Source of the DNA: Mayamaea pseudoterrestris
Taxonomy: Eukaryota
Assembly (NCBI GenBank): GCA_027923505.1
Contig: BROI01000018.1
Span: 62,001-126,000 of the forward strand
Direction of reading: 5' to 3'
Length of the DNA stretch: 64,000 bases
The number at the start of each line of letters is the position of its first letter. Within the stretch, counting starts at the first letter, position 1. Below are positions 13,231 through 56,024 of this stretch, one piece after another. A program made the translations under genes and the position numbers. Under the pieces are notes generated by a model that was not told the origin of the DNA, made no database searches, and was given only the letters and a program-made list of their open reading frames with translations.

Positions 13231-16200
13231 CTAGCCATGGACTAATCTACGTTTGCGCCTCGGCGAAGGTACTTCGTCCTCGACGTGGCAGACACGTGCA
13301 CAAGTCTTGTCGCCAGAGCTGATTGTTCGAAAAGCATTGTCAAGCGGAGAACATGGTCCAAGATTTTCGCCCGGATCATCGTCTTCGTCTTCGTCATCAT
13401 CAAGGGATTCACCCATGTACTCTATCTCGATGGCAACATCTTCATCTTCGAACGGATTTAAGTCGCTGCATTGTTCTGTTCTGCCACGCATGTACTGTTT
13501 CATCGTTTCATTGACTGAAGACGAGAGTCGACTAAAACCAAGCGCATTCAACTCACCGGAGAGATCAGCAACGATTTGTTGAAAGCTAAATGCCTCGCAT
13601 GCACTACGGCAAGCTAGAACGTTCGTCGCATTTTCACTTATGAATTCGTCCGATGTCACACCAGCAGGCTCGCAAGGTCCGGGCATTCGAGTGCTCCTAC
13701 GAGCACTTCCCTTCCTCGATCGGTGAGTGTTTATCGATCGATGTGTATCGAGTTCTGATCGAATGATGCTATCGCTGTTCTCCATCGTTGTATAAGTTTC
13801 AAGCGAACGCAACGTCGAATAAAATGAGCTTTCCATTGTCTCATGAGTCTTGTAGCCCGTTCCCAATGATACACCATCATGATTGCGGGCAGGATTAGTT
13901 ATGTCTTTATATTTCAACGTGCCTGGCGCAAAGTCGGCGTGGTTAACTACTTCATTGTCGTTCTCCCCGGACTCGATATACCGTGACGCCGCATTGTAAC
14001 GATTTGTAAGCCGAATCTCCTCTTTCAATTGTTCAATTTCCGGCGTAGATACTCGATACGGCCTGAGCTGCGGTGGTGTTCCAACTAACGTTTGTTGCTG
14101 CTTGCTCGCCTGTTTCGGTGAAAGCGGTAAATTGCTACCGTTGTGCTTGTCGGTAGATTGCGGAAAGAGCATGTTGCTCGATTGTTGTTTCAAGATTGAT
14201 TCGTCTGCGTAAAAATTGAGTTGGTTGCATCCTTGTCGCCTCCGTCGCTCCAACATAACTTTTCCAGCACGGTTGGCCAGGGAGGAAGTGCCCGAAAAGA
14301 GGGATTGCGAGCCCACCAATGAGGATGCCATAGAATAACTCTCTGACAAGAAAGAGAAGTTGGTATCGGATGGATCAGACATGGGTGACATTATGCGGCT
14401 GTCGGACTCGTGCTCCAAGATACTTCTTGTAGTCGAAGAGAAGACAACTGGCGTTGTCGCAATTTCCGACTGTGAAACTTGTTCAAGTGATTGCTTTGCG
14501 GTCGTGCATGGTTTTGGTAACCTAGCCTCGAACTTCACCACCGGACTGTCTGGAATTTGTGAGCACATGAGTCCAGCATCAGCCTCAGCCTCAGCTTTCG
14601 CATTTTCCGTTTGTTTATTTCGCATCTGGGCCTTGAGCAGGTTTTTCTTCTCATTGTGATCACGTAGCTGGGAAGTTCTCCTATCACCATTTCGTTGTTC
14701 CCCGTTCGCTTCCGTGTCGAACAAGTGATCTGGCTCGTGAGCTATCGCTCTTGGACTCGCACACTGTGTGCCAGTGGAACCAACAAGATATCGACTGTCA
14801 TTTTCTGGCGTTTCTGCATTCTCCTGAAGAGGGGTTTCTCGTTGGAAGGGCGCACCTTTTTGATCCAATGCAATGTCCTTTCCCAGATATTCAAAGTTTT
14901 GAATGGCTTGTCTCATCATTGCTGATTTTCTTGAACTTGTCGATGTCGGGGCTGTTTTGGAAAATTCGACTGACGTTATAGATGTGGTCGGGGCATGTGG
15001 CCTATCCGCGCGCTTACTTTCAGCGCTTGCAGAATTTAAACGGTAATTGTGCTGGACAATATGTTTGCGTCCCAGTCTTACTAACTCACTTCTCTTTGAA
15101 ATGGATTTAAGTGCCCTGGGAGATGAAGGGCGCATGAAAGAGGGTTGTTGAGGAGCATCATCTGGTCGGTTCCATGCGGCGAATGCGGAGCACTTCGACG
15201 ACACAACCATTCCTCCATTCAAATTGCTAGATGTGGTTTCTACTATCTCGCTTTTAGTGATAGGGGAAGACGTGATGGATTGTGTGCGAGTTAGCCCAGA
15301 GAATCTAGCTGGTTTCACGGTCTTTGCTTTGGGGCTCGACTGATCCCACACATCAACGAAGAGTGACGGGGTCATCGGCGAGCTGAGAGATCTCTCACCA
15401 ATGAGTTCAGCGGGACTCGCATCAGGTACCTGAGCATCAAAGCAAGCACCCACTGCATCATTATTTGCAATACTACATGAGCTTTGGCATTTAGTAGTCG
15501 GTGCACCGGACGGCGGCGCACATCTTGGCACAAAATCATGGGTTTGTGCGCCGGTTAAACTTTTTGCGCCAAGGACCTTTTTTCCTTTAATCCGATTGTG
15601 CATCTTTCCCGAAAAAGACGCTAGTCGAGATGCAGCTGGGGAACTTGAAATCGACCTGGTTGACGTTGGAGTTGCTGGGTTGCTTCTATTGTAATGAACC
15701 TGTTCCGCAGCGGCACTCGTATCAGAGTGGCTGACCGCAGACAGTGCAAGCGCAGGTTTAGCCAAGTCGAAAGTAGTCTCACTTTCTTCGCGCTGCCACC
15801 GTTGTGTCGCGATGGGAGCTCGTGGGACTGCTACGTCTACTATTCCATTGGCTTTAGCCATAAGCTGCCATTTCTTGAAAACGGATGCCTGGGACGTAGA
15901 CGACGATTCGTGGATCGCATCGGAAGGTGCCGTGACTCTCCTGTCTTCATGATTGACAATGATCTGCGGAGAGCTGGCATCTGGGCTCGCAATTTCATCA
16001 GACAGAAGCGATTCTAAATCGTGTCGCGCGTCACTGCCACAGAAAGCCTTCGCCATCTCTTTCTCGCGATCCCGTTTCCTTGATGATGAACTGCGCTTCA
16101 CCGATGTACCACTTATTCGATTGACATCAGCAGCACTCGCAAGTAATGATTGTTTCGAAGTGGCTCGCGACGTTGAAAGAATCTCGTCTGCTTTTAATGG

Positions 16201-17586
16201 ATCAGATGTCTTTACTGATTCTTTCAAGCATGTATCAACGAGACTCGATTCCGCGTCCGAAGACGAGATGGGTTTCTCGGGCTTAAGCCATCGATCCAGC
16301 ACGCTGGGTCGTTTCCTCTCTGCTCTGTCATTTGGGGCTGCAGCGAATGGCCGCTGCGTTTTCAAAGCGGACGATGACTGCGTTGTCATGGAGCTAAAAG
16401 ATTCGCCTTTTTCGTGTCCAGGCGGAGGACAAGCATTCGTTTCTTCAACAATGGCTGCAGCGAATGGCCGCTGCGTTTTGAAAGCGGACGAAGACTGCGT
16501 TGTCATGGAGCGAAAAGATTCGCCTTTTTCGTTTCCAGGCGGAGGACAAGCTTTCGTTTTCGCAACCTCCTCTGTCACCAATATTTTCTTCACATTTTTG
16601 GTCGTGACGTTCTCTGCTGGTTGAGTATTCGTCGCCACATTTGCCTGATCGCGGACGTCTGATGGCTCACTTTGTATTTGTCGCGATGAAGATGCTCGCA
16701 TTCTCCACAAGGCCATTGCACTGACATGAGCTGGTTGGGCATCAATTTGTGTCGACGGGAAATCACTCTTTTCATCGCTACCATTCAGCGGCTTATCCGT
16801 CGAGCGCAAGTCATGCCATGACTTGAAACTTAAGCTGCTGTCCGAAATTACATCCGAGACTGGCTCGGCTTTATACGCATTGGTTTTGCACATTGCTTTA
16901 GAACCGCCATGAGACGAAGCGCAAGTGATTTCCAAGTCTGCGCGCTGTTCGACATCGCGCTTAGCTATCGGAGTGAGAGGGGCATTCGGGGATTGCAGCG
17001 TCACACTTGCCTCGGTAGGGAAAGGAGCTGGTGTAACATTCCCGGTAGTAGGTAGGCTATGATTTAATGCTTTCATTTGCCATGGCGGTGTTTGCACCTT
17101 GATGACATCCTTGATAGAGCTTGATGAAACTAATGTTCGCTCCTTCCAGACGTCTTTAATTGACATGGCGTATTGCTGCGCTTCTACATATTCTAGCTCG
17201 TCCTCCTTCTTTTCATCACAAAATGTAGCTGAATCGAACGGCGACTTGTTGTCAAAGATGGTGGCTTTTTCCATGAATGGAGTTGTTCGAGGCGCGGGTT
17301 TCGTAGGCGCCGATTCTCGCTTTCTCCATATATCCACAACACTTGCACGACGAGAAGGTTGAGCTTCATCTACTGCACTACCAACTCGTGGTTCCTCCTG
17401 TTGTAAAGCATTACCTAGGTCGGTATTGATGTTGTCAATTGCTTTTTCGGACGATGCAATGGTGCCAACATTAAACTTAGGTGGCGGAACTTGCTCAACA
17501 TGGTCGAGTGTGTCGTTCATCGCCCGTATACGGTCGCGAATGGACAAGGCGCTCCATTCGGAGCGAGTGAAGGAAGCTGTTGACAT
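13231..17586 (-). CDS. Large Ser-rich, likely disordered hypothetical protein (~1450 aa)
   Basis: Long uninterrupted ORF, first ATG 17586, acidic C-terminus, no recognisable domain. Confidence 0.7.
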   Translation of the reverse strand: MSTASFTRSEWSALSIRDRIRAMNDTLDHVEQVPPPKFNVGTIASSEKAIDNINTDLGNALQQEEPRVGSAVDEAQPSRRASVVDIWRKRESAPTKPAPRTTPFMEKATIFDNKSPFDSATFCDEKKEDELEYVEAQQYAMSIKDVWKERTLVSSSSIKDVIKVQTPPWQMKALNHSLPTTGNVTPAPFPTEASVTLQSPNAPLTPIAKRDVEQRADLEITCASSHGGSKAMCKTNAYKAEPVSDVISDSSLSFKSWHDLRSTDKPLNGSDEKSDFPSTQIDAQPAHVSAMALWRMRASSSRQIQSEPSDVRDQANVATNTQPAENVTTKNVKKILVTEEVAKTKACPPPGNEKGESFRSMTTQSSSAFKTQRPFAAAIVEETNACPPPGHEKGESFSSMTTQSSSALKTQRPFAAAPNDRAERKRPSVLDRWLKPEKPISSSDAESSLVDTCLKESVKTSDPLKADEILSTSRATSKQSLLASAADVNRISGTSVKRSSSSRKRDREKEMAKAFCGSDARHDLESLLSDEIASPDASSPQIIVNHEDRRVTAPSDAIHESSSTSQASVFKKWQLMAKANGIVDVAVPRAPIATQRWQREESETTFDLAKPALALSAVSHSDTSAAAEQVHYNRSNPATPTSTRSISSSPAASRLASFSGKMHNRIKGKKVLGAKSLTGAQTHDFVPRCAPPSGAPTTKCQSSCSIANNDAVGACFDAQVPDASPAELIGERSLSSPMTPSLFVDVWDQSSPKAKTVKPARFSGLTRTQSITSSPITKSEIVETTSSNLNGGMVVSSKCSAFAAWNRPDDAPQQPSFMRPSSPRALKSISKRSELVRLGRKHIVQHNYRLNSASAESKRADRPHAPTTSITSVEFSKTAPTSTSSRKSAMMRQAIQNFEYLGKDIALDQKGAPFQRETPLQENAETPENDSRYLVGSTGTQCASPRAIAHEPDHLFDTEANGEQRNGDRRTSQLRDHNEKKNLLKAQMRNKQTENAKAEAEADAGLMCSQIPDSPVVKFEARLPKPCTTAKQSLEQVSQSEIATTPVVFSSTTRSILEHESDSRIMSPMSDPSDTNFSFLSESYSMASSLVGSQSLFSGTSSLANRAGKVMLERRRRQGCNQLNFYADESILKQQSSNMLFPQSTDKHNGSNLPLSPKQASKQQQTLVGTPPQLRPYRVSTPEIEQLKEEIRLTNRYNAASRYIESGENDNEVVNHADFAPGTLKYKDITNPARNHDGVSLGTGYKTHETMESSFYSTLRSLETYTTMENSDSIIRSELDTHRSINTHRSRKGSARRSTRMPGPCEPAGVTSDEFISENATNVLACRSACEAFSFQQIVADLSGELNALGFSRLSSSVNETMKQYMRGRTEQCSDLNPFEDEDVAIEIEYMGESLDDDEDEDDDPGENLGPCSPLDNAFRTISSGDKTCARVCHVEDEVPSPRRKRRLVHG
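16336..16558. repeat. 117-bp (39-codon) intragenic tandem duplication
   Basis: ggctgcagcgaatggccgctgcgtttt... at 16336 and 16453. Confidence 0.9.
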
Positions 17587-18345
17587 ACTGCTGTCGTTGC
17601 CAATTTGTGCGTGCGCGATTGTTCTTTTGTTGTTGTATTCGTTGGCCTTTCGTTCCAAAGCAGAGGTTCAAGTCTTCCGTGCCAGTCCTTCTTCACCCAC
17701 AACTACAAGGATTCTTCCTTTTCGCCGCTCTTTCGTTTGTTTCTCTCACAGACGAACGAATCAGGTCTAGATTCGTCTCTCTCGCATGCGTTACCCAGGC
17801 ACCATTGTAGGTTTCAACGTACCTCTCCAACACTTGGCTTCGACTTGGATTTTGGCGGCGATTATGTGACGCCCCGACGCGCGCCAGGGTATCCTAGATT
17901 GAAGAGTATACATTAGCGACATGCTCCATCGCCAAAGTAGGCGACGCGCCTCAGCTGAGGGGCAATATATAGAGCATGACTCATGGCCGAACGGATAGTG
18001 TGTTACGAAAATCTGTGTCTCGGACAAACTTACTATATGTTTTAGTGTACACGCGGCTGGCGCGGCGTTGCAACGCTGATTCGAAAGCGGCAATGAAAAG
18101 ATTTGGAGTGAATGGCTCGACACCGCGCTTCGTCCTTCGCTACTTACGCTGGATGACCATGACAGTCAAAGGGCCAGAAAGAGCTGCTTCTCGATGGATC
18201 ATGTACTTAATAGAAGTGGAACATAACTAACGAAACTTGGTCGCATTAACAATAGCTGGAAGTTGATTTGTGAATAACAATAAAGCTACGAGGCTACAGC
18301 TCGTTCTCTTCCACGCTTTTCTTCAAGCACTGCACTGGATTTAAA

Positions 18346-26323: not shown

Positions 26324-26684
26324 AACTTGGAAGTTGCTGATCTCAATGATCTTGTTGATACGGCATGTACAAGGATTTCGAAGTCCTTCGCACGACCATC
26401 TTGGATCTTGGTGAGGAGCGACTTTCTCCGAGAAGCAAATGTCGTAGTGGTACTGTCTACGACACGTGAGAAGCAACACGAGAAGCAAACCTTGCTTGCT
26501 TGGCACCTCATCGCCTGTCGCAAACCATTCAACAACTATGCGATAATCTCCTCGTCGCACCCGACTGCGAAGACGTTTGAAACTAAGCTTGTAGTTTATT
26601 TTACGCAAATCAACGTCAGAATTTAGATGCTTTGAACGCTGCGCTACGAACTACTCTCGCCGCTCGTCGCTCGTTGCATCAGCC

Positions 26685-28721
26685 ATGCCATCAGACGAGC
26701 AGTTGTTTCGAGAAGAGTTCGCTTCAAGTCTCCAGGAATCAGTTGCTTCGATACTTTCCGCGCGCAAGGAAGACTGTTTGAGTCTACCGTTACAAGTCGT
26801 CAGAGATGTACTGGAGAAATTTGAGCAAGTTCAGGTTCTGCAGTTTCATCAGCAGCAGCAGACACCGCACGAACATCTGTACTTGCTCTTGCAGTTGTTT
26901 TTCGACACAAGTCTGGACGAGTCGGCCAGCGCTTTGAAACGACGTTCAAGCTATACTGATCTTCAACGTCTTTTGCAAATGATCGATGGGGCTTTAGCTT
27001 TGGTAAATGAATCGGCAGGACTTGACAATCATCATATTCTGGAATTCAATCATGAGTCTGCCATACAGCAGGGTGCTACAGCTAATCGCAAATCTTCGAA
27101 TAATACATTGCGAAACGAAGCTACATTGAATGTTAGCCAGCACAGCAATGATGCAAATTCACTTGCGACGGCGACGCATATGCGATCAGCAGACCACCTT
27201 GATCAAAGTTCAAACCGACAAGTTGAACAAAGTGCTCCGACAAGGGCAGCAGTCCGACTATCGACAGTGCACCACAACGTCGAGTCGGCTATTGTAGATG
27301 CCGGCCTCGAGAATATTCAGCAATCTACCGTTCAGGGTATGTCCAGTATTGCGGTGCAAACGCAAACTGACAGCGAACAGCAACTCAATTTGACTGTGAA
27401 AGAGTCAAACGCGAGCATGGACGATGCATATGCCATGTTGGGCGCCAGTATCAGCTCAGTGCATGCCAGTTTACTGGACGTTTGTGGCGTTGATCCGACA
27501 GAAATTGCTGCAGTTCATCCGCCGCCGACAATGCAAACAGACCATCATGGGGAAACTTCAACCGCAAGGTTAAGAGTCTGTTCACATCATCAGACCCTCC
27601 TTGATTGCAGCGACGTTGCCATGGTGGCGAATGACGCGGGTGGAGTGAACAGCCCACAGAAAAGCGCATCGCGAACCAACTTGAATGTTCGATTGACGAA
27701 ACAATGTCAACCAAAATTTTCCTTTGGGTCCCAACATGTCGACCTGTTAGATCTGACGGAAGTCGCGCAGACGGAGAAAGGTAATGGAACTTCTTTGAAG
27801 AAAAACTTGACCGCTCCAACTGAAACTACATTATCTGCTGAGCCCACCAACGGTACAAACAGAGGCATGCGATTAAATGATCGTGGCCGTTTACAAATTG
27901 CCAAGGTTAGATCGCCAGACGCCATGGATACATCCGACGATGAAGGAGATGAGCCAGCGCCATTTGCTGTTCCACGAGCACTCGCGGTACAACAGCAGCA
28001 ACCCAGCAGATCAGCAATGGTGAATGGCGAGTATAGCGTGGACTTAAATTGCGCACGCACGACATCGAATCCATCTGCAAGTTTGGCAATGTCGCAGTCA
28101 AGTGGTTATTCTACAAATGGCGAACAAAAGAGGCCACGCTCACCCGATGTGCCAATTGTTAATCCTGTCCAGCGAGCACTGACTGCACCAAGTAAGCAGG
28201 AGCCACCACATCACCATTACACATCAAAGCCTAGTAGCAGGCGATGGGACGACGAAGCCGCTTCGGCCGAGTCACGCTCCGGTGACGGCGCATTGTTACC
28301 GGGACCAGGATGCTTGGATCATCGTGACCATGTTAAAATTGGTACAAATGTTATAAACGAACGGTGCTTTTCGTCTCTAAGCGCCGACACTGCGAATGCA
28401 TTCAAGGGAGGCTTGTTGGGACCGCAAAAGACGCATCAGTGCCCCGATGGTGAACAATCGTCGGCCACTAGCCATAGTTCTTCACATACCAACGCCCTTA
28501 ATTCGCCGACGAACAGTATAAGTTCAACTCCAGGACATTCACCCCGTAAGCGTTCTCGAGGCCAAAACAGAAACAATGGGCAAGTTCTATCGCCTCATGT
28601 CCAAGTACCAGTGACCGAGCGCGTTCCAGCAGATATATGGGCTACTTGGTCATATAAGCAAAAACAAGCGTTCATATCAGAGAAGCGTCGAAAACTCGCT
28701 GAACAAGGTAATCGAACCTAA
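26685..28721 (+). CDS. Hypothetical protein; N-terminal helical domain homologous to the SP-RING gene at 35554
   Basis: 678-aa ORF. Residues ~15-105 align by eye with the N-terminus of the 35554 protein; the rest is low-complexity. Confidence 0.7.
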   Translation: MPSDEQLFREEFASSLQESVASILSARKEDCLSLPLQVVRDVLEKFEQVQVLQFHQQQQTPHEHLYLLLQLFFDTSLDESASALKRRSSYTDLQRLLQMIDGALALVNESAGLDNHHILEFNHESAIQQGATANRKSSNNTLRNEATLNVSQHSNDANSLATATHMRSADHLDQSSNRQVEQSAPTRAAVRLSTVHHNVESAIVDAGLENIQQSTVQGMSSIAVQTQTDSEQQLNLTVKESNASMDDAYAMLGASISSVHASLLDVCGVDPTEIAAVHPPPTMQTDHHGETSTARLRVCSHHQTLLDCSDVAMVANDAGGVNSPQKSASRTNLNVRLTKQCQPKFSFGSQHVDLLDLTEVAQTEKGNGTSLKKNLTAPTETTLSAEPTNGTNRGMRLNDRGRLQIAKVRSPDAMDTSDDEGDEPAPFAVPRALAVQQQQPSRSAMVNGEYSVDLNCARTTSNPSASLAMSQSSGYSTNGEQKRPRSPDVPIVNPVQRALTAPSKQEPPHHHYTSKPSSRRWDDEAASAESRSGDGALLPGPGCLDHRDHVKIGTNVINERCFSSLSADTANAFKGGLLGPQKTHQCPDGEQSSATSHSSSHTNALNSPTNSISSTPGHSPRKRSRGQNRNNGQVLSPHVQVPVTERVPADIWATWSYKQKQAFISEKRRKLAEQGNRT

Positions 28722-28856
28722 AGGTACTAGTTTGAATGAGAGCTTTGCTCGGAGGCGTGCTTTAGCATACTAGTAGCGAAATAGAATACACTTTTAGACA
28801 TTCTTGCTAGCGATGCTTTCTTGTGCATTTGTACGCACCATGATGCTTTACAAGTT

Positions 28857-31800
28857 CTGAGACTCCGCACATTCAACCCTGCAGGGATCATCAGCATTGC
28901 CCGCTGAGCCCTCCAATTTCTTTCAAATCATGTTTGTTGTCAATGATGGGCCATAAGTTGGTCAGTGGCACCTCAGCATCCATCACCATGTATGCCACGG
29001 TGAGGCAGAGCAGATCCAACAACTTGTTGGATCTGCTAGCGGTGCACCTCAAGTGGCAAGTGAGACTTTCAAAATGGCCTGCAGATCCCATAATACAACC
29101 AATATGGACTTGAACATTGATTGGGACTCAAAGACTCGTCCATTAGGGTGTGAAGCCATCACCATGCCATGAGACTGCACACATTCAACCAATGGTTGAA
29201 TGTGCCAGCCGTGCTCCCATTTGGCTGCAGGATTCATCAGCATTGCCCGCTGAGCCCTCCAACTTCTTTCAAATCCTGTTTGTTGTCAATGATGGGCCAT
29301 AAGATGGTCAGTTGCACCTAAGCATCCATCGCCATGTATGACACAGTGAGACTGAGCAGATCCAACAAGTTGTTGGATCTGCTAGCAGTGCACCTCAAGT
29401 GCCAAGTGAGACATCCAAAATGGCCTGCAGATCCCATAATACAACCAATATGGTTTTGAACATTGATTGGGACTCATAGACTTGTCCATTTGGGTGTGAA
29501 AGCCATCACCATGCCCTGAGACTCCGCACATTCAATTCAATGAATGGTTGAATGTGCCACCTCTGCTCCCTTTTTGGCTGCATGGATCATCAGCATTGCC
29601 CACTGAGCCCTCCAATTTCTTGCAAATCATGTTGGTTGTCAATGATGGGTCATAAGTTGGTCAGTGGCACCTCAGCATCCATCACCATGTACGCCACGGT
29701 GAGACAGAGAAGATCCAACAATTTGTTGGTTCTGCTAGCGGTGCACCTCAAGTGGCAAGTGAGACTTCCAAAATGGCCTGCAGACCTCATAATACAACCA
29801 ATATGGACTTGAACATTGATTGGGACTCAAAGACTCGTCCCTTTGGGTGTGAAGCCATCACTATGTCCTGAGACTCCGCACATTCAATGAATGGTTGAAT
29901 GTGCCACCTCTGCTCCCTTTTTGGCTGCATGGATCATCAGCATTGCCCACTGAGCCCTCCAATTTCTTGCAAATCATGTTGGTTGTCAATGATGGGTCAT
30001 AAGTTGGTCAGTTGCACCTCAGCATTCATCACCATGTAAGCCACGGTGAGACAGAGCAGATCCAACAACTTTGTGGATCTGGTAGCGGTGCACCTCAAGT
30101 GGCAAGTGAGACTTGCAAAATGGCCTGCAGACCCCATAATACAACCAATATGGACTTGAACATTGAATGGGACTCAAAGTCTTATCCATTTGGGTGTGAA
30201 GCCATCACCTTGCCCTGAGACTGTGCACATTCAACCAATGGTTGAATGTGCCAGCCCTGCTCCCATTTTGGCTGCAGGAATCACCAGCATTGCCTGCTGA
30301 GCCCCCAATTTCTTTCAAATCATGTTTGTTGTCAATGATGGGCCATAAGTTGGTCAGTGGCACCTCAGCATCCATCACCATGTATGCCATGGTGAGGCAG
30401 AGCAGATCCAACAACTTGTTGGATCTGCTAGCGGTGCACCTCAAGTGGCAAGTGAGACTTTCAAAATGGCCTGCAGATCCCATAATACAACCAATATGGA
30501 CTTGAACATTGATTGGGACTCAAAGACTCGTCCATTAGGGTGTGAAGCCATCACCATGCCATGAGACTGCACACATTCAACCAATGGTTGAATGTGCCAG
30601 CCGTGCTCCCATTTGGCTGCAGGATTCATCAGCATTGCCCGCTGAGCCCTCCAACTTCTTTCAAATCCTGTTTGTTGTCAATGATGGGCCATAAGATGGT
30701 CAGTTGCACCTAAGCATCCATCGCCATGTATGACACAGTGAGACTGAGCAAATCCAACAACTTGTTGGATCTGCTAGCAGTGCACCTCAAGTGGCAAGTG
30801 AGACTTTCGAAATGGCCTGCAGATCCCATAATACAACCAATATGGTTTTGAACAATGATTGGGACTCATAGACTTGTCCATTTGGGTGTGAAAGCCATCA
30901 CCATGCCCTGAGACTCCGCACATTCAATGAATGGTTGAATGTGCCAGCCCTGTTCCCTTTTTGGCTGCATGGATCATCAGCATTGCCCGCTGATCCCTCC
31001 AATTCCTTGCAAATCATGTTTGTTGTCAATGATGGGCCATAAGTTGGTCAGTGGCACCTCAGCATCCATCACCATGTACGCCACGGTGAGACAGAGCAGA
31101 TCCAACAACTTGTTGGATCTGCTAGCGGTGCACTTCAAGTGGCAAGTGAGACTTCCAAAATGGCCTGCAGATCCCATAATACAAACAATATGGTTTTGAA
31201 CATTGATTGGGACTCATAGACTTGTCCATTTGGGTGTGAAAGCCATCACCGTTCCCTGAGACTCCGCACATTCAATGAATGGTTGAATGTGCCACCTCTG
31301 CTCCCTTTTTGGCTGCATGGATCATCAGCATTGCCCGCTGAGCCCTCCAATTTCTTTCAAATCATGTTTGTTGTCAATGATGGGCCATAAGTTGGTCAGT
31401 GACACGTCAGCGTCCATCACCATGTATGCCACGGTGAGGCAGAGCAGATCCAGCAACTTGTTGGATCTGCTAGCGGTGCACCTCAAGTGGCAAGTGAGAC
31501 TTTCAAAATGGCCTGCATACCCCAAAATACAACCAATATGGACTTGAACATTGATTGGGACTCAAAGACTCGTCCATTAGGGTGTGAAGCCATCACCATG
31601 CCATGAGACTGCGCACATTCAACCAATGGTTGAATGTGCCAGCCCTGCTCCCATTTTGGCTGCAGGAATCACCAGCATTGCCTGCTGAGCCCCCAATTTC
31701 TTTCAAATCATGTTTGCTGTCAAAGATGGGTCATAAGTTGGTCAGTTGCACCTTAGCATCATTACCATGTATGCCGCAGTGAGACAGAGCAGATCCAACA

Positions 31801-34800
31801 AGCTTGTTGGATCTGCTAGCGGTGCACCTCAAGTGGCAAGTGAGACTTCCAAAATGGTCTGCAGAACCCCATAATACAACCTATATGGACTTGAACATTG
31901 ATTGGGACTCAAAGACTTGTCCATTTGGGCGTGGAAGCCATCACTATGTCCTGAGACTGCGCACATTCAACCAATGGCTGAATGTGCCAGCCGTGCTCCC
32001 GTTTTGGCTGCTTGGATCACCAGCATTTCCCGCTGGGCCCTCCAATTTCTTTCAATCATGTTTGTTGTCAATGTTGGGCCATAAGTTGGTCAGTTGCACC
32101 TCAGCATCATAACCATGTATGCCACAGTGAGACAGAGCAGATCCAACAACTTGTTGGATCTGCTAGCGGTGCACCTCAAGTGGCAAGTGAGACTTTCGAA
32201 ATGGCCTGCAGATCCCATAATACAACCAATATGGTTTTGAACAATGATTGGGACTCATAGACTTGTCCATTTGGGTGTGAAAGCCATCACCATGCCCTGA
32301 GACTCCGCACATTCAATGAATGGTTGAATGTGCCAGCCCTGTTCCCTTTTTGGCTGCATGGATCATCAGCATTGCCCGCTGATCCCTCCAATTCCTTGCA
32401 AATCATGTTTGTTGTCAATGATGGGCCATAAGTTGGTCAGTGGCACCTCAGCATCCATCACCATGTACGCCACGGTGAGACAGAGCAGATCCAACAACTT
32501 GTTGGATCTGCTAGCGGTGCACTTCAAGTGGCAAGTGAGACTTCCAAAATGGCCTGCAGATCCCATAATACAAACAATATGGTTTTGAACATTGATTGGG
32601 ACTCATAGACTTGTCCATTTGGGTGTGAAAGCCATCACCGTTCCCTGAGACTCCGCACATTCAATGAATGGTTGAATGTGCCACCTCTGCTCCCTTTTTG
32701 GCTGCATGGATCATCAGCATTGCCCGCTGAGCCCTCCAATTTCTTTCAAATCATGTTTGTTGTCAATGATGGGCCATAAGTTGGTCAGTGACACGTCAGC
32801 GTCCATCACCATGTATGCCACGGTGAGGCAGAGCAGATCCAGCAACTTGTTGGATCTGCTAGCGGTGCACCTCAAGTGGCAAGTGAGACTTTCAAAATGG
32901 CCTGCATACCCCAAAATACAACCAATATGGACTTGAACATTGATTGGGACTCAAAGACTCGTCCATTAGGGTGTGAAGCCATCACCATGCCATGAGACTG
33001 CGCACATTCAACCAATGGTTGAATGTGTCAGCCCTGCTCCCATTTTGGCTGCAGGAATCATCAGCATTGCCCACTGGGCCCTCCAATTTCTTTCATATCA
33101 TGTTTGTTGTCAATGATGGGTCATAAGTTGGTCAGTTGCACCTCAGCATCATTACCATGTATGCCGCAGTGAGACAGAGCAGATCCAACAACTTGTTGGA
33201 TCTGCTAGCGGTGCACCTCAAGTGGCAAGTCATGAGACTTTTGAAATGGCCTGCAGATCCCATAATACAAACAGTATGGTTTTGAACATTGATTGAGACT
33301 CATAGACTTGTCCATTTGGGTGTGAAAGCCATCACCATGCCCTGAGACTCCGCTCATTCAATGAATGGTTGAATGTGCCACCTCTGCTCCCTTTTTGGCT
33401 GCATGGATCATCAGCATTGCCCACTGAGCCCTCCAATTTCTTGCAATTCATGTTTGTTGTCAATGATGGGCCATAAGTTGGTCAGTTGCACCTTAGAATC
33501 CATCACCATGTATGCCAGGGTGAGACAGAGCAGATCCAACAATTTGTTGGTTCTGCTAGCGGTGCACCTCAAGTGGCAAGTGAGACTTCCAAAATGGCCT
33601 GCAGACCTCATAATACAACCAATATGGACTTGAACATTGATTGGGACTCAAAGACTCGTCCATTTGGGTGTGAAGCCATCACTATGTCCTGAGACTGCGC
33701 ACATTCAACCAATGGTTGAATGTGCCAGCCCTGCTCCCATTTAGGCTGCAGGATTCATCAGCATTGCCCGCTGAGCCCTCCAATTTCCTTCAAATCATGT
33801 TTGTTGTCAAAGATGGGTCATAAGTTGGTCAGTTGCACCTCAGCATCATTACCATGTATGCCACAGTGAGACAGAGCAGATCCAACAACTTGTTGGATCT
33901 GCTAGGGGTGCACCTCAAGTGGCAAGTGAGACTACCAAAATGGTCTGCAGAACCCCATAATACAACCAATATGGACTTGAACATTGATTGGGACTCTTAG
34001 ACTTGTCCATTTGGGTGTGAAAGCCATCACCATGCCCTGAGACTGCGCACATTCAATGAATGGTTGAATGTGCCAGCCCTGCTCCCTTTTTGGCTGCATG
34101 GATCATCAGCATTGCCCACTGAGCCCTCCAATTTCTTGCAAATCATGTTTGTTGTCAATGATGGGCCATAAGTTGGTCAGTTGCACCTTAGAATCCATCA
34201 CCATGTATGCCAGGGTGAGACAGAGCAGATCCAACAATTTGTTGGTTCTGCTAGCGGTGCACCTCAAGTGGCAAGTGAGACTTCCAAAATGGCCTGCAGA
34301 CCTCATAATACAACCAATATGGACTTGAACATTGATTGGGACTCAAAGACTCGTCCATTTGGGTGTGAAGCCATCACTATGCCCTGAGACTGCGCACATT
34401 CAACCAATGGTTGAATGTGCCAGCCCTGCTCCCATTTTGGCTGCAGGATTCATCAGCATTGCCCGCTGAGCCCTCCAATTTCCTTCATATCATGTTTGTT
34501 GTCAAAGATGGGTCACAAGTTGGTCAGTTGCACCTCAGCATCATTACCATGTATGCCACAGTGAGACAGAGCAGATCCAACAACTTGTTGGATCTGCTAG
34601 GGGTGCACCTCAAGTGGCAAGTGAGACTTCCAAAATGGTCTGCAGAACCCCATAATACAACCAATATGGACTTGAACATTGATTGGGACTCATAGACTTG
34701 TCCATTTGGGTGTGAAAGCCATCACCATGCCCTGAGACTGCGCACATTCAACCAATGGTTGAATGTGCCAGCCCTGCTCCCATTTTGGCTGCAGGATTCA

Positions 34801-35272
34801 TCAGCATTGCCCGCTGAGCCCTCCAATTTCCTTCAAATCATGTTTGTTGTCAAAGATGGGTCATAAGTTGGTCAGTTGCACCTCAGCATCCATTGCCATG
34901 TATGCCACAGTGAGACAGAGCAGATCCAACAACTTGTTGGATCTGCTAGGGGTGCACCTCAAGTGGCAAGTGAGACTTCCAAAATGGTCTGCAGAACCCC
35001 ATAATACAACCAATATGGACTTGAACATTGATTGGGACTCAAATACTTGTCCATTTGGGCGTGGAAGCCATCACCATGCCATGACACTGCGCACATTGAA
35101 CCAATGGTTGAATGTGCCAGCCGTGCTCCCGTTTTGGCTGCTTGGATCACCAGCATTGCCCGCTGAGCCCTCCAATTTCTTTCACATCATATTTGTTGTC
35201 AATAATGGGCCATAAGATGGTCAGTTGCACCTCAGCATCCATCGCCATGTATGACACAGTGAGACTGAGCAG
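28857..35272. repeat. Tandem satellite, ~347-bp unit x ~18.5, each unit a dimer of palindrome-bearing ~177/170-bp monomers
   Basis: tgagact(g/c)cgcacattcaa recurs near 29170, 29518, 29870, 30217, 30563 ... 34733, 35082. First unit has an internal deletion; last unit is partial. Confidence 0.98.
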
Positions 35273-35553
35273 TTATTGGGGCTAACGTTTGCTGAGACGA
35301 GTCGAGCGATGGACTTCACGTTCACGGTAGATAGTTATCGTACCGGTACTGCGATGCAACATTTTTTCGGACCACCACTGCTCCATGGCGAAAGAGCTGC
35401 GCGTTCCCAAGACCTGCGCGCGACGACTCGCCATATGCTGCTGCCATACACATACTAGAACTAGTCAAGGTATTACAGAGTGAAACATTGTTAAAGTTGG
35501 TTCGCAGCGACGCGACGTCATTCGCTAGAAACGACAAACGACTAGTCGTCACG

Positions 35554-38398
35554 ATGAACAACCCGCCGGCTGCTGCGACAACAAACAACATCAACAGTAC
35601 GGGCGACGAGGAGGTACAATCAATACCGCCCATGGTGATTAAGATCCTCAAGACTCGCAAGGCTGATTGCTCGATTCTACCAGACGCTGCAATTATTGAG
35701 ATTTTAAAGGAATACAAGCAAACCGACGTGACCAATCCACACGTCAAGCTGCATTCGCTTCTTCGAAAGGTTTTGCTTGACATGGTTGATACATCACGGA
35801 GCGCTTCAGACCGAAGACAAAGCTACATGTGCACTTATTGGCTGTTGCAAAAGATTGATGACGCTGTCCGGTCGGCCAAGCAAGCAGGAATGGCGCACGT
35901 AACGGATGATGTCGGTGCAGCAACTAAAGTTTCCGCTGCAAGCCATGACCCGTCGGAACGCATGAGCCAAGCAAGCAACAATTTACAAGCAATGAATCCT
36001 CAAACCACGGAAAGTAATGATTTCCACAGCTTGGCTCCTTCTGCGAGTCAGGAGACCGCTACGCTACCTGTCGCGAGGCAGTGTAGGACGAGTGGCGAAT
36101 TGTCGACAGCTGGCGAACATTTTGAAAAGGATATGGACTTGTCAAACATGAGAAAACGGCGATGGGACTACCCTTCAACAATTGACAATGCTGCTGGCGC
36201 CCCTTTAAATGCAAAAGAACAAGCAGATTACAGCAAACACGCTCGACTCGACGAAGGTACAGAGCGAACCTATGCCGCTCTCGCCGATGCTTCTTCCACG
36301 GCGCTTGGCCGAGCCACTCCTGCGCACCAGGAACAACAAAAGCAGCAAGAGCAGCAACAAAAACGATTGCCAAACTTATCAATACTGTCACAGCGAAAAT
36401 TAATATCGACAGATCGCGCATCCAAACAATCAAGTGTTTCACTGGAGGCGCCTTTGCGAGAAGAGCGCGATGGCGCGGAAAGAACAGATGCATTGTCCTC
36501 TTCGGAGCGTAGCGATAGCTTTGCTAGTAAGCAAACAATGAATGATGGTACTAGCAACGGATTCAAGCAGCACTCGTTACATAATGATGGATGTGCTTCT
36601 CGCAACAATTGTGGAAGCCATACGTACGCTCCTGCGTTACAACGCGCATCTTCAATGGATATAAGTGCTCGATGGGAACCTCCCAGCAAGTCGGCCGCTG
36701 CAGTGACAGATGACTCACCGGAGTCGACGCCTGCCTGTGATTCTCCAATGGCACAAGATGAAATGCATCTTGTGGGTCGTCCAGTAATGTCAAACAATAA
36801 TGAGCTTGCACGTGCGTCAACAACGGATCGAGTGTCTGGGTTCAGGCAAAGTGAATATCAAACATCACGAGAATCTGTTGTCGATAATGATAGGAATTGT
36901 CAGAATCGAGATCATCACCGAAACAAAACAATTGACAGTCTTTTGGGTCACCGACCTTCTTTGGGCGTACCGGAAGACCCTCAACCAATTGACACGCGCG
37001 GCGAAAAGATCAACCGTCAGCGAGACCTAATGGCGCCAACCGCCTCCACGAGGAATGATTGTGCTGAAAGCCATACGAATGGGACAGTGGTCATGCACAT
37101 GGCGGCTGACACTGCCTCAGTGGGCCCAAACCTCATGTATTCATGCGCGACACGAAATTTACAAAGACCGGCCGTGACAATCACCTTTAATCAGAAGCAC
37201 ATTAGCGATGCATCAAGGGATCGCTTGTTGCGACGACTGATACGCTGGGATCCATACTGGCTGTTCGATTCTCAAGTACAAGTAGGTAAAACCTTCGGGT
37301 TCGTTTCAAAACGAAGCGAAAGTCGATCTTTAAAGTCTGCCATGCAGCTTCGTATCAGACCCGATAGAGATTTATTGATGAACGATAGACAGTCTGCTGT
37401 GATGAACAATAGACAGTCAGCTGAGTCTGCTTGGGGAGATTCGGCGTCACGCCCCCTATCTGCTTATAGTCCAAGGGTTCTTTTACGCATGATACCCGTT
37501 GATGATGCGATTGCCAACCGAGCTGATTGTCATTTGTGGCCGCGTGGGACGTTTCTACAAATTAATGGCAAACCTGTTCAACTGCAGCAGCGTAAAATGA
37601 CAAACCAAGGCAAATGGGAAGGCAATTGCAAGATTTTGAATCTAGGAGCTTTGGTCAAAAGCCCGTTCGATGAGTTGACAATTGAAATGTGTTGTCACGA
37701 CGATATGCCGTTTTACTTCTGCCTGGCTGTGTGCAGATATCAGCCGCCTATTCAGGTCCTTTACGATTTGATGGATCGGCGACGGGAGCGACCGTTGCGG
37801 ATGTTGCGGCTGTTGAGAGGTGCTGGAATTGAACGTGCCAAGCGCCATCTTTCAGCGAGTTTCGAAGCAATTGATGCCGGCGATGATGAGGACGTTTGTG
37901 CAGAGGCGAGATTTACATTTTCGCTCCTTTGCCCAATATCTAAGCGCTTATTGACTTGTCCTGTTCGTGGCGTCCACTGCAAACATTGGCAGGTAAGTGC
38001 TGGTGGTGTTGTCCTGATAACTTGACCCTACTTACGACTAATTTAAATTCTTTGTCAAGTGCTTTAATCTTGTCACTTTTCTTGAGAGCAATGTCGCAGA
38101 AGGGCGACAGCGCTGGCGATGCGCCATTTGTGAGAATTTTATTGCCGTGGAGGACTTGCAGTTGTGCAAATTGACGCGCGACATGTTGTCTGAGTTCAAA
38201 GACATCGCGACGACTTCTCGTGACCGCGTCGAATTTCGGCTGGATGGCACGTACGAGCTACTGCCCGAACGTCGCATAAAGTCAAGAAAGAAGGCTTTAA
38301 CCGACGACGCGATTGTTTCTAATGATATTATGGGCGAGAAGGGTGGCAACGATCAATCAGAAGTTGTCATCTTGGATGAGGAGGATGTGTGTGCGTAA
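35554..38398 (+). CDS. SP-RING (zf-MIZ) SIZ/PIAS/ZMIZ-like SUMO E3 ligase; intron 37993-38059
   Basis: FSLLCPISKRLLTCPVRGVHCKHWQ|CFNL..FL.....RWRCAIC. Upstream HLWPRGTFLQING. C-terminal SIM-like EVVILDEED. Confidence 0.88.
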
Positions 38399-45977: not shown

Positions 45978-48119
45978 TTACAGTAATAGCTCGACCTTGG
46001 CACCTACCTCGGCCGAAATTCCTTGCTCGAACAAAACCTTGCATTTTCCAGCTTTACCAAACGGACCAACAATAGCACCTTCCTCCTTGGTGCTCACTAC
46101 CAAGACTTTAGCACCGGCGCTGTCTTTGACATTGATCTCGGGAGCGAACAAGCCTGCAATAATGCCCTGATTATGCTTGCCGTTCGCCAACATGTCGCCC
46201 TTTACTGCTGAAACAGTGCCATGGCGACTTACTCCGTCGGGCAGCTTCTTGCTCTTCTTCACAGCTTCTATTCGTGCACCTGGTCGATCTGGTGGTAGCT
46301 GCATGTCTTGATGCATGCTTTTGGAAGGGTCGTGAGCGTAACGCTTGAAGCGGAGAATCAACGCATCACCCTGTCGAGCTTCCGTCCCTGCCGGAAAAAA
46401 CACCCGAAACATCCCGTCCGTTCCGTACGACGACTTGATTACACCAATATCTCCCTGCTCTGTCTCAATCTTCATGCCAACAAATGGTTTCATATTCGTC
46501 TCCTTCTTGAATAGACCAGAACCAAACACCTCGTATCGAACTACCTTGTCGTCGTCCGAGCGCTTGTGTGCATCGCCAAGACGGCCAATTGTTCCGCGTT
46601 TCTCTTTGGGTACATAGATGCGTAGCTCTGGTATATCTCGAATCGGGTCCAGAGCTTCGACTAGGCGTCCGGCGAACGAGAGGCGACAGGACGAGGTTGT
46701 GCCTGATGCATTATTGTCGACCGCGTCCAGTCGGGAACCAATGATGAGGCTGTGAATGGGACAATGCACTGGTGTCTGAAAATGGATAAACGCCCACTGA
46801 AGCGGAGGATTGTCGATTAATTTGCACGATGAACCTTCGATTTTCTCGACCAGATGTTCTTGTTGTAGATATTGTTGATTAAAATCGTATGACAAACGCG
46901 GCAGACCGGCAATGTCTGCTCCGCCACCAAGCGACGACGAATTTAATTGCTTCTTGTCGGCACATTTAGCAGCAGACTTAACAAGGTTGTTGCTGGCTAG
47001 TTGATCTTGCAACGTTTGTAGCTCCGAGGCGCCCCAGAAGGTGACATTCGCCATGACAGTCACATGGCCAACGGATATGTGAAACTTTGATCCACTAGGC
47101 AACAATCCATTGTAATACTTTATTCCACGAACGACTGCAATACCGCCTCTCCATACTTGAACAGCACCTGGACTTGCCGCGATTCCTCGTTCAAGCAGCT
47201 TGGCGTCCAAATTACTAACGCAAATTCCGGCGCGATCGCCTTGCTGTATTCTGGAAATTTGCCGTTTGAACATTTGCATAGACTTGACCTTGCGGTCCAG
47301 GCCAAGTGTCGGAAACTCCAACACGTCATTTACAGATACTTGTCCACTCAAAACGGTACCAGTCAGTACGGTGCCACGTCCTTTGAGCGCAAAGCAATGA
47401 TCAATGGAAAAGTAAAATGGGCCATCGGAAGAACGCTTGGGCACTGGAATGTTACTTTGTAACAGATTGACGAGCTTCTCCATATTTAACGACGCATGCT
47501 TCTCGACGGCTGCTAGACTTTCGTCAGTTGCAGCCGCCACCTTTTCACCTCCCACGCAGGCAGCAACATCGATGATGGGCGAATCTTTGAATCGTGAATT
47601 AGCCAATCGTATTCTTACCCGAGACGCAGCTGCTTGCAATTGCTCCTCTCGATCCGCTCCCACCAGTAAATCAGCCTTGTTTAGCGCAACAATCAGATAT
47701 GGCGACGTGAGTTCCGCCAAGACGAGACACTCGGTGGTTTGCGCCTGCCAACCTTTCTGTGCGTCCACAACGAGCAACACCAAGTCGACAATTTGTGCAC
47801 CTCCAATAATGGTTCTTATCAGGCTCGCATGTCCTGGACAATCCACTAGAGTCATTTGTAGCGCCGTCTTTTCAGGAAATGCAGTTTGCAAATGTGTCGG
47901 AAGGTTAAGGTAAAAACAGCTGAATCCAAGGTCGAGCGTCATGCCTCGATCGCGCGACTGTCGCGACTTGTCGAGGGCTGCCGTGCTGAGATGCGTCGAA
48001 AGCGCTTTCACCAAGGATGTTTTACCTGAGTCCACGTGGCCGAGGATTGCCAAGTTAATGTTGAGAATGGATTGAGGTTGAATGCTAGCATCGGCGGCAG
48101 GCAGGGTTGTAGCTGTCAT
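45978..48119 (-). CDS. EEFSEC: Selenocysteine-specific elongation factor
   Basis: GHVDSGKT, LSTAALDK..QSR.RGMTLDLGFS, LVDCPGHASLIRTIIGGAQI, QTTECL, CRLSFAG, LFKKETN. Confidence 0.93.
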   Translation of the reverse strand: MTATTLPAADASIQPQSILNINLAILGHVDSGKTSLVKALSTHLSTAALDKSRQSRDRGMTLDLGFSCFYLNLPTHLQTAFPEKTALQMTLVDCPGHASLIRTIIGGAQIVDLVLLVVDAQKGWQAQTTECLVLAELTSPYLIVALNKADLLVGADREEQLQAAASRVRIRLANSRFKDSPIIDVAACVGGEKVAAATDESLAAVEKHASLNMEKLVNLLQSNIPVPKRSSDGPFYFSIDHCFALKGRGTVLTGTVLSGQVSVNDVLEFPTLGLDRKVKSMQMFKRQISRIQQGDRAGICVSNLDAKLLERGIAASPGAVQVWRGGIAVVRGIKYYNGLLPSGSKFHISVGHVTVMANVTFWGASELQTLQDQLASNNLVKSAAKCADKKQLNSSSLGGGADIAGLPRLSYDFNQQYLQQEHLVEKIEGSSCKLIDNPPLQWAFIHFQTPVHCPIHSLIIGSRLDAVDNNASGTTSSCRLSFAGRLVEALDPIRDIPELRIYVPKEKRGTIGRLGDAHKRSDDDKVVRYEVFGSGLFKKETNMKPFVGMKIETEQGDIGVIKSSYGTDGMFRVFFPAGTEARQGDALILRFKRYAHDPSKSMHQDMQLPPDRPGARIEAVKKSKKLPDGVSRHGTVSAVKGDMLANGKHNQGIIAGLFAPEINVKDSAGAKVLVVSTKEEGAIVGPFGKAGKCKVLFEQGISAEVGAKVELLL

Positions 48120-48476
48120 TGTGACTGATCAGTGGCTGGATCTGCTTCAAATTGCTGGAGTACTGCTAAAATGCTAATCTTTCCAAAAGGCAGCTATCAA
48201 GTAATTGTAAATACCGATAGCAGCAGGATGAGAGAGTTGATGGTTGGACGAAAGAATAAAGTTGGATTGAAAACATCATGGTACGCGCGATGGCGCGGAT
48301 GGTCGGAGCGTTATTGGGTACCGGAACGACTTGAATGTGCCGGCGTTTATGAAACGGTCCATGCACGCCGGCATGGCTGATTGGAATCGCCGCCGATTCT
48401 CCAAACCGCGCGGAAACGCCCAATTCAGCTGCTCCATGATCGCATCCTGCTGAGGCAAAGCAAGTGTTTAAACACC

Positions 48477-52824: not shown

Positions 52825-54006
52825 TCATGAGGACTGTTGCGGTCCAGTCGTCATGGCAGCCTTTCCACTCGTGTCGACATTGGAGACACGCTTTTGATGA
52901 CCATGCCGGCCACGGTACTTGCGCTGAATCTGGTAAAAAATGACCCCAAACACCAAGACAGCACCAAGTGCGCTCGCGGCCGATATCTTGTGCCCGAAAA
53001 TGACGGCCGAAATGCAAATCGAGATTAATTGCCGCGTCGTCATGATAACGGTAAACACCACTGGACCAAACTCCTTGATGCAAACGAAAATACAGAGCTG
53101 CCCCGTCGCCGAGGTAATGGCCGTGATGATATTGTATTTGAGTGCCACTGGATTCGCTGCGAGAAACTCCATGACCACCGGTACATCGCCACTAACAATC
53201 AAACCAACCGTCGTGATAATAATGGCCGAAATATTCACGCCAAGCATCATTTGATACTGATCGACATTGTTGCGCCCATACTGCGAGTATACCTTGTCCT
53301 GCCACTGCGACGTGAAGGAGTCGAAGCAAACGTACATGAGCAAAAAGATCAAGCCCAAAAATTCGGTGGACTTTCCAGAATCGCCCGACTTGGACAGGAC
53401 CGAAAAGATTGCCACTCCAATGGTGATCAGCAAAGCTTCCACATATTGCGACCAAGGATAGGACGATCCCTTGAGCAGCTTGCCCATGATCATGACTGGA
53501 ATAATCTTGGAACTCTTGAATACCGTCTGCACCGGAAAGGAAACATACTTGAGCGAGGCATACTGACTCCAACTGCTCACAGTGTTGCTGAGTGCACATG
53601 GCGTAAATGAAAAGAGCGGTGCTACATTGTTCGAGAAGAATGCGCCGTGCTTGATGCGAACGGCAATGAGAGCGACAATGACTGCCAAAAATCGATTAGA
53701 AAAGACGCAAAAGGCAGCGGACGGAAAGCGACCGCTCGGTACCTGAGGAGTCGGATTAAACTCTGTTGTCATGATGAGTTCCTGCATATACCCCCAAGTA
53801 AGGTAGGAAGCTTGTAGCGAGATAAAGCAAAGAAGAAACTTAAAAGCCGTTTTGAAGAACTCGGGGTTTTGCGGACAGTGCGTCGCAAAAAAGACGTCCA
53901 TGTAGTTTTCAAACGACGAGAGAGGAGCTGGCGAGCCGAGAGGGACTTCTCGAATAATTTTTGGTTCCAGTTTGCTTTCACTTGAATCTCCTAGCAGGGG
54001 TCTCAT
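52825..54006 (-). CDS. SLC35B (UAA family) nucleotide-sugar/PAPS transporter
   Basis: YLTWGYMQE.IMT, VFSNRF, SSWSQY.SLKYVSFPVQTVFKSSKIIPVM, FDSFTSQWQ, IMTTRQ. Confidence 0.88.
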   Translation of the reverse strand: MRPLLGDSSESKLEPKIIREVPLGSPAPLSSFENYMDVFFATHCPQNPEFFKTAFKFLLCFISLQASYLTWGYMQELIMTTEFNPTPQVPSGRFPSAAFCVFSNRFLAVIVALIAVRIKHGAFFSNNVAPLFSFTPCALSNTVSSWSQYASLKYVSFPVQTVFKSSKIIPVMIMGKLLKGSSYPWSQYVEALLITIGVAIFSVLSKSGDSGKSTEFLGLIFLLMYVCFDSFTSQWQDKVYSQYGRNNVDQYQMMLGVNISAIIITTVGLIVSGDVPVVMEFLAANPVALKYNIITAITSATGQLCIFVCIKEFGPVVFTVIMTTRQLISICISAVIFGHKISAASALGAVLVFGVIFYQIQRKYRGRHGHQKRVSNVDTSGKAAMTTGPQQSS

Positions 54007-55690: not shown

Positions 55691-56024
55691 GTAGGATATA
55701 TCCGGACATGCTTGATGCCATGGTTGTGGTGCATGCAAAGACCCCTAATAATAAACATGCTAGCTATCCCAAACACATTGCTTTACTTTAGATATTTGCT
55801 CTCAAAAAGCCATCAATTACTACTCAATTACTGCAATCTCTGGCCTCTACTTCTGTTTATATAAACTAAAATTGTTGGCACCGACCCATTAAATGGTTGC
55901 TTTGAAGGCCAGTGCTGTTGTGACTGTGACTACTGCTTGACAGTCTTTGTGCATACGGAGCGCACAAAGGTCTGCAGGCTATGTGAAACCATTGATCCTA
56001 CCACCTCCCTGCCCTGCGGATGTG

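Follow-up and report, generated by a model that had tools for sequence, protein, structure and literature searches.

Mirrored differences between two homologous palindromes in a dimeric satellite of the diatom Mayamaea pseudoterrestris

When two related palindromes have come to differ in sequence and each is still symmetric, what has kept their paired arms in step? This question is raised by a satellite array of Mayamaea pseudoterrestris, located at 28857..35272 (plus strand) of a 64,000-nucleotide stretch of contig BROI01000018.1 (assembly GCA_027923505.1, positions 62,001 to 126,000 of the forward strand), which is here called the window and numbered from its first base. The array consists of 18.5 copies of a 347/348-bp unit that is itself a dimer, composed of an A half of ~171 bp and a B half of ~176 bp, and each half carries one palindrome (A and B, respectively). 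An earlier note, made from the sequence alone, had described an array with these limits and a 347-bp unit, in agreement with the results of Tandem Repeats Finder and with inspection of the edges by eye. The same note had proposed that the dyad symmetry of the palindromes is maintained, either by selection on a cruciform, an RNA hairpin or a dimeric-protein site, or by arm-to-arm correction through template switching. The analysis described here upholds the maintenance of symmetry; the evidence for selection as its cause is weak, and arm-to-arm template switching provides the best fit.

Results

Palindromes A and B differ by three mirrored pairs

The reference copy of palindrome A (30225..30251) is GCACATTCAACCA-A-TGGTTGAATGTGC, 27 nt long, with 13-bp arms and a 1-nt centre, and the reference copy of palindrome B (30401..30429) is AGCAGATCCAACAA-C-TTGTTGGATCTGCT, 29 nt long, with 14-bp arms and a 1-nt centre; neither is assigned to a strand, and both are exact matches to the examples given in the earlier note. 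The 27-nt core of B is homologous to palindrome A, and in the consensus each of the two palindromes is preceded by CCATCACCATG...TGAGAC, as previously claimed. In an alignment of 36 half-cores (29 distinct rows, with 13 pairs counted), A and B cores align without gaps and are identical at 20 of the 27 positions, in symmetric blocks. The arms pair in 95.8% of the cells, compared to 21-37% after a shift of the partner by 1-3 columns. The pairs altered on both sides are exactly three (CG/GC, UA/CG and AU/CG), so that the gapless alignment with three mirrored complementary differences, which had been deduced from the sequence, holds on all these half-cores.

The probability of obtaining three mirrored complementary pairs from six random arm differences is about 5 × 10−5. 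Because this probability is so low, we conclude that something must maintain the dyad symmetry of A and B: independent substitutions cannot yield mirrored pairs. All three compensated pairs fall on the single split between A and B and, phylogenetically, represent one split and not three independent events. CpG deamination was considered as the origin of the mirrored differences and rejected, given that none of the three pairs (0/3) is located at a CpG and that two of them are transversions.

Comparison of the complete halves, with the palindromes included, yields an alignment well beyond chance (z = 7.9-8.7 vs. dinucleotide shuffles), mainly due to the first 100 bp, whereas the halves with the palindromes cut out reach only z = 2.6, a marginal score that was also reached by 27 of 1000 shuffles. 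Because the remainder aligns marginally without the palindromes, the secure A/B homology is restricted to a core of ~70 bp that consists of CCATCACCATG, 3-10 bases, TGAGAC, 3 bases and the 27-bp palindrome; that the rest of the halves is much more diverged had been noted before. The sole A/B length difference within this core is a stretch located 10-30 bp upstream of the palindrome that is longer in B than in A, and on it lies a second hairpin, found in the B half only (30375..30395, no strand assigned; TCACCATG-TATGC-CATGGTGA, with an 8-bp stem). The shared CCATCACCATG motif recurs, in reverse complement, as the 3' arm of this hairpin, the perfect form of which, with CATGG, is the commonest across sequencing runs (28998 C>T at ~46-54%).

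A fuzzy search that allowed up to 6 substitutions identified 18 copies of A and 17 copies of B in the array. The 18th B is a variant copy at 31788..31817 (no strand assigned) with a one-base central insertion (AAGCTT) and is thereby a perfect palindrome of 30 nt, its 15-bp arms directly adjoining. Perfect arms of at least 12 bp are present in 8 of the 18 A copies (5 at 13 bp and 3 at 12 bp) and in 11 of the 18 B copies. The CC>TG change at arm positions 11-12 was found in 8 of the 18 A copies, the number estimated in the earlier note. This change (29189-29190 and equivalents) converts CCAATGGTTGAATG to TGAATGGTTGAATG, that is, a direct TGAATG repeat 8 bp apart, and the A copies that carry it retain a 10-bp stem with a 7-nt loop. 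Another variant at the same site, C>A at 29190, is common there across sequencing runs. Elsewhere in the window, a single locus outside the array has perfect arms of at least 10 bp.

Both palindromes have the dyad symmetry from which a hairpin or a cruciform is predicted to form. The whole unit folds better than its shuffles, with z = -5.6 as DNA, and z = -4.75 and z = -4.79 as RNA on the two strands, a difference that largely restates the presence of the palindromes.

Arm variants are about as frequent as variants in the rest of the unit

Diversity within the array was calculated from 17 monomers, with the incomplete 18th dropped; the power of this test for selection is low, many of the monomers being recent duplicates. 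Segregating sites account for 13 of the 52 arm positions and for 91 of the 294 other positions (odds ratio 0.74, p = 0.42). The diversity per site is 0.060 in A and 0.056 in B, compared to 0.085 overall, and among sliding 27-bp windows A and B rank at 16% and 11.5%, respectively. All arm variants within the array break the symmetry and none (0) is compensated. Four arm transitions produce wobble pairs, two of these on the plus strand (A27 and B10) and two on the minus strand (A1 and A18). Given that the three compensated pairs share one A/B split and that the arms vary about like the rest of the unit, the evidence for selection on the arms is weak, and there is no significant protection of the arms in this array. 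The earlier note had accepted in advance that arm variants as frequent as those in flanking positions would speak against its proposal, and the array comes close to this situation. In the pile-up of sequencing runs, 29179 and 29190 are the sole arm positions with a common variant among the 40 of 82 variant places listed, which points the other way, toward selection.

The array is a satellite with edges at palindromes

The repeat called by Tandem Repeats Finder spans 28879-35272 (period 348, 90% matches, 18.4 copies). Inspection by eye places the start at 28857/28858, where TGAGAC opens an incomplete first unit, and the end at 35272, four bases inside a B core. The monomers in the array are 346-352 bp long, and in the 347-bp consensus unit the two CCATCACCATG motifs mark the division between a 171-bp and a 176-bp half. 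The GC content of the array is 47.7%, compared to 48.5% in the window, and no 500-bp window falls below 41.6% GC. We observe a head-to-tail tandem array of a fixed unit, with many genomic copies that evolve in concert, as is characteristic of satellites.

A higher-order period of four units is apparent from an identity of 94.3% at lag 4, the remaining lags being at ~92%; monomer 6 is 100% identical to monomer 10, as is monomer 7 to monomer 11 (~30858-32250). Taken together, the four-unit period and the identical monomer pairs indicate recent unequal exchange inside the array. The identical monomers themselves correspond to either a very recent four-unit (~1.39 kb) duplication or a duplication in the assembly.

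At the left edge (28858..28878, plus strand), TGAGAC, three bases and the left A arm are joined, at the palindrome centre, to CTGCAGG; compared to the consensus, there is a 35-bp deletion that begins at the centre of the first A palindrome. A 32-kb contig from sequencing run X2 spans the junction of flank and array at 28300-28908 with zero differences. The right edge (35260..35272, plus strand) consists of TGAGAC, three bases and GCAG, the first four bases of the B core, followed by unrelated unique DNA. All three structural breakpoints (3/3), namely both array edges and the 35-bp deletion, are therefore located in or just before a palindrome. A search of the array flanks for degenerate monomers detected no similarity to the unit (z ~0).

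The satellite is abundant and non-coding

We compared the left flank plus 1.3 units to the Logan contigs of four runs (X1, X2, X3 and X6). The left flank is single-copy, with a depth of 112.9 in X1 and 35.2 in X2. The repeat is matched by 2,655 contigs in X1, 922 in X2, 2,549 in X3 and 145 in X6; of the X1 contigs, 516 are at least 99% identical, 758 are 95-99% identical, 999 are 90-95% identical and 382 are less than 90% identical. The summed depth on the repeat in X1, which is not a copy number, is 62,000-1,040,000 vs. 113 on the flank; overall, the repeat exceeds the single-copy flank in depth by a factor of hundreds to thousands. The satellite is accordingly a large and diverse family, present in runs labelled as three organisms from two studies. 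A scan of metagenome contigs for CCATCACCATG, 3-10 bases and TGAGAC returned 119 single matches, none of them homologous to the unit by blastn; these are chance hits. The degenerate A/B palindrome pattern was absent from both the viral contigs and the prokaryote genome contigs scanned (0 matches in each).

In each unit, there are stops in all six frames of the consensus. A 101-aa open reading frame (ORF) in the array had no homologue among the proteins searched (55-177 aa), and four array ORFs gave a single match to Pfam, far below threshold (E = 0.027). We thus rejected a coding reading, considering the stops in every frame, the lack of a protein homologue and the lack of a credible Pfam match: the satellite is non-coding. 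A search of the array against Rfam retrieved no family at E up to 1, and no tRNA.

CpG decay is confined to tandem arrays

The observed/expected ratio of CpG is 0.22 over the array vs. 1.05 over the remaining window. In 1-kb bins, this ratio lies between 0.12 and 0.30 at 29001-35000 and equals 0.18 at 55001-56000; the bin 54001-55000, with a ratio of 0.77, overlaps the start of small arrays at 54666-55683, and the 1-kb bins that are free of tandem arrays are all at 0.82-1.36. The boundary of the CpG decay matches the array edges to within 1 kb. The consensus contains 3 CpGs vs. ~20 expected, and its TpG+CpA value is 1.87 vs. 1.21 elsewhere. In the consensus of 17 monomers, 4 of 4 CpG sites segregate on both bases. 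Such decay is the signature that long-term CG methylation followed by deamination would leave and, because the CpG depletion with TpG/CpA excess is restricted to the tandem arrays, these arrays are probably methylated. In diatoms, CG methylation of repeated elements is established, according to excerpts of PMC9998398.

The small arrays at 54666-55683 are two adjoining ones, with periods of 169 bp (3.8 copies) and 176 bp (2.1 copies), and CpG observed/expected ratios of 0.25 and 0.10, respectively. In the 169-bp unit, TGAGAC is directly followed by a palindrome, TGGTGACAA-C-TTGTCACCA, which is perfect with 12-bp arms at 54841-54865 and has its inner ACAA-C-TTGT in common with palindrome B. The 169- and 176-bp units do not align with the A and B halves (z from -1.2 to 0.5).

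Host and neighbouring genes

The window is compact and gene-dense, with plastid-related and other eukaryotic genes. The best named relatives of its lycopene cyclase are from diatoms, at 59-65% identity (Epithemia, Cylindrotheca, Seminavis, Nitzschia, Fistulifera and Chaetoceros), in support of the diatom host that had been guessed. The array is located between two long ORFs on the same strand, at 26595-28721 and 35335-38025. The former has no Pfam match and terminates in AAG/GTAATC, which resembles a splice donor; the latter has a C-terminal MIZ/SP-RING zinc finger that scores below threshold (22.8 bits vs. a cut-off of 33.5). Further away, a 117-bp unit is repeated 1.9 times with 95% identity at 16336-16559, inside a minus-strand ORF of 1,478 aa (13231-17667) that has no Pfam match. 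The ORF at 45978-48128 has the complete domain set of the eukaryotic selenocysteine-specific elongation factor, and judging by these domains the diatom host probably makes selenoproteins.

Discussion

Arm-to-arm template switching as the proposed mechanism

We see about an even chance that the array is a methylated selfish satellite, the palindromes of which stay symmetric through arm-to-arm template switching and are spread by unequal exchange. In such a satellite, the palindrome would fold as a hairpin during replication, and the nascent strand would briefly copy one arm from the other. Through this template-switch mutation, or quasi-palindrome correction, a change in one arm would be erased or mirrored onto the other arm in a single event, and unequal crossing-over would then distribute the repaired form across the arrays. 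The three mirrored differences between A and B would represent one or few copying events and not six selected substitutions, and the same hairpins would render the palindromes fragile, giving rise to the array edges and the deletion within them. We infer hairpin formation in vivo as well as template switching as the copying mechanism.

Several observations point in this direction. The palindromes have reverse-complement arms and clustered mirrored changes that can be explained by one copying event, and the location of all three pairs on a single A/B split is what one such event would give. Template switching can create perfect stems and fix pairing in one event, as stated in excerpts of PMC8794818; template-switch mutation and quasi-palindrome correction are also the subject of PMC5453318 and PMC3820800, in the parts drawn on here. 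Two of the mirrored pairs are transversion pairs (C-G to G-C and C-G to A-T) with no wobble intermediate, as is more readily expected of copying in one step than of stepwise selection on RNA. The second hairpin in B, upstream of the palindrome, may be an independent footprint of the same process, and the central base gain in the B copy at 31788-31817, which preserves perfect symmetry, is likewise counted in favour of template switching, as is the non-significance of purifying selection on the arms. The placement of the breakpoints is as expected of fragile, hairpin-forming DNA. The selfish or heterochromatic character of the satellite is supported by its CpG decay, by the segregation of all consensus CpGs and by the abundance and diversity of the family. 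Template switching is the best fit because the mirrored pairs are not explained by a protein site alone or by CpG deamination and do not favour an RNA hairpin.

Other observations weigh against template switching, a mechanism that is read here from the end state of the sequence. Three breakpoints are few, and the chance of their coincidence with palindromes, ~0.01, is a rough estimate from the share of the module in the unit. Frequent correction should make broken copies rarer than the 10 of 18 A copies and 7 of 18 B copies observed, and in the four runs 29-37% of the A-type depth belongs to C>A at 29190, a change at arm position 12 that has no compensation in the other arm. Furthermore, the palindrome bins are among the deepest: in X1, the A bin has a depth of 548,000 vs. 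62,000-97,000 in its neighbours, the B bin has 698,000 and the next bin 1,039,000, the deepest stretch in the pile-up being the 35 bp after B, which is not a palindrome. Finally, subfamilies visible at loose ends have a different upstream motif but retain TGAGAC and the palindrome. The deep palindrome bins and the retained module would also fit selection on the palindrome module.

Possible selection on DNA structure

The principal alternative is that the cruciform or hairpin DNA itself is selected, for example as a mark of a satellite centromere or of another landmark, with the symmetry constrained and the sequence free to change. We regard this as unlikely, even with a number of findings on its side. 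Symmetry has survived the turnover of the sequence; the depth of the palindrome bins and the retention of TGAGAC plus palindrome in diverged subfamilies, discussed above, are as selection on structure would have them; and the frequent variants of A are located at the hairpin apex (arm positions 11-12), where a hairpin tolerates them. The unit folds better than shuffles as DNA (z = -5.6), the sub-repeat of ~174 bp is nucleosome-sized, and dyad symmetries are enriched in centromeric satellites according to excerpts of PMC5889037. These findings are to be set against the lack of a significant deficit of arm variants in the array (p = 0.42) and the imperfection of more than half of the A copies. 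The GC content of 47.7% equals the background, whereas the known diatom centromeres are short, low in GC and without highly repeated elements, as far as an excerpt of 10.1101/2021.11.10.468027 describes them, and the strong CpG decay suggests silenced DNA, although it is compatible with a centromere. The more specific proposal, that TGAGAC and the palindrome form a module with drifting sequence, under selection for DNA structure, which serves as the mark of a satellite centromere or of another structure-specified chromosomal site in the diatom, appears quite improbable to us.

The comparison with centromeric satellites of dyad symmetry (Kasinathan and Henikoff 2018; PMC5889037, in excerpts) is nevertheless close in several respects: these are tandem, non-coding and abundant, as is the array, with a sub-unit that is nucleosome-sized at ~174 bp here, and they contain short inverted repeats predicted to form non-B DNA. 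The arms in the array, however, are 13-14 bp long and perfect, compared to less than 10 bp in those satellites. With respect to the centromeres of Phaeodactylum and Fistulifera, the array differs from the short, low-GC region without highly repeated elements that is described in the excerpt of 10.1101/2021.11.10.468027.

Protein binding, RNA and mobile elements as unlikely alternatives

If, instead, A and B are variants of one site for a homodimeric DNA-binding protein, with the half-site GCAnATnCAACnA, their identity at 20 of 27 positions in symmetric blocks is accounted for, and half-sites of 13 bp around a 1-bp centre would suit a dimer. The mirrored pairs, however, put this proposal in a dilemma: if the three variable positions are not contacted by the protein, their complementarity between the arms in both A and B is unexplained, and if they are contacted, two specificities are required. 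Moreover, CC>TG (8/18) and C>A at 29190 each destroy one half-site only. We consider such a binding site highly unlikely.

We give still less credence to a transcribed array in which the palindromes are RNA hairpins, part of a structured non-coding RNA or of a silencing-RNA precursor. Compensatory pairs are a classical signature of RNA, the folding scores on the two strands (z = -4.75 and z = -4.79) agree with it, and methylated repeats are often linked to small RNAs. Nonetheless, no path through G-U exists for two of the three compensations, which are transversion pairs, and the wobble pairs that result from one-sided transitions have no strand preference (two on the plus strand and two on the minus strand). 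For Dicer-type processing, moreover, a 13-bp stem around a 1-nt centre is short. The array thus lacks the sequence features of a structured-RNA gene: there is no Rfam match (no family at E up to 1), the three covarying pairs are on one split, and wobble tolerance is not biased to one strand.

The least credible alternative, internal tandem repeats of a mobile element (Helitron/Helentron, or miniature inverted-repeat transposable element, MITE) or successive elements that meet at their terminal inverted repeats, is consistent with a short, dispersed array in a gene-rich region and conflicts with a left flank that stays single-copy as far as the junction (depth of 113 in X1 and 35 in X2) and is bridged by the 32-kb contig, with flanks unrelated to the unit, and with array ends that are not 5'-TC...CTRR-3', the end motif of Helitrons. 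Tandem repeats of mobile elements are recognized by repeated non-satellite termini, characteristic ends and a target-site duplication, a pattern that the array does not fit. Bivalve Helentrons and MITEs do carry short satellite-like arrays (PMC7492417 and PMC3879986, in excerpts). Abutting terminal repeats were rejected: they would match at 10 of 13 positions, yet the palindromes at the junctions are perfect, for which identical repeats are needed.

Relation to known systems

The template-switch quasi-palindromes in excerpts of PMC8794818 resemble those described here in their reverse-complement arms, in multi-base mirrored differences on one split and in a neighbouring insertion that is reverse-complementary to adjacent sequence. 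They differ in that the events in the template-switch papers (PMC8794818, PMC5453318 and PMC3820800, as excerpted) come from reconstructed ancestors, whereas only the end state is available here, and the locus is a satellite and not an RNA gene. The CG-methylated transposable elements of diatoms (PMC9998398, in excerpts) are likewise repeated DNA with a signature of CpG decay; the array, by contrast, is a tandem satellite and not a transposon, and its methylation is deduced from the CpG decay.

The dimeric organization has its own parallel. In alpha-satellite, which is dimeric, monomers of type A and type B follow each other in turn, and the box found at a given position differs between the two types. 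As in alpha-satellite, the sub-repeats of the diatom unit alternate, are diverged and have each their own version of a motif at a homologous place. In the diatom, in contrast, mirrored changes relate the two motifs, which are palindromes and are not known to bind proteins, and the lineage is unrelated.

Both dyad-symmetric satellites and hairpin repair by template switching were known already, such that the array is a neat example and not a new kind. Our literature search for diatom satellites found no description of such a family, in a coverage that leaves out most subscription journals.

As a compact natural example, two adjacent homologous palindromes show here that symmetry can survive the turnover of sequence, and the locus could enable a clean test of whether hairpins are maintained by mutation or by selection. 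It could also reveal whether some diatoms use repeat-based centromeres; a satellite centromere, if true, would contrast with the short, low-GC and non-repetitive centromeres of Phaeodactylum and Fistulifera, as excerpts of their description present them. For this diatom genome, CpG decay provides a cheap marker, readable from sequence only, of tandem arrays that are probably methylated.

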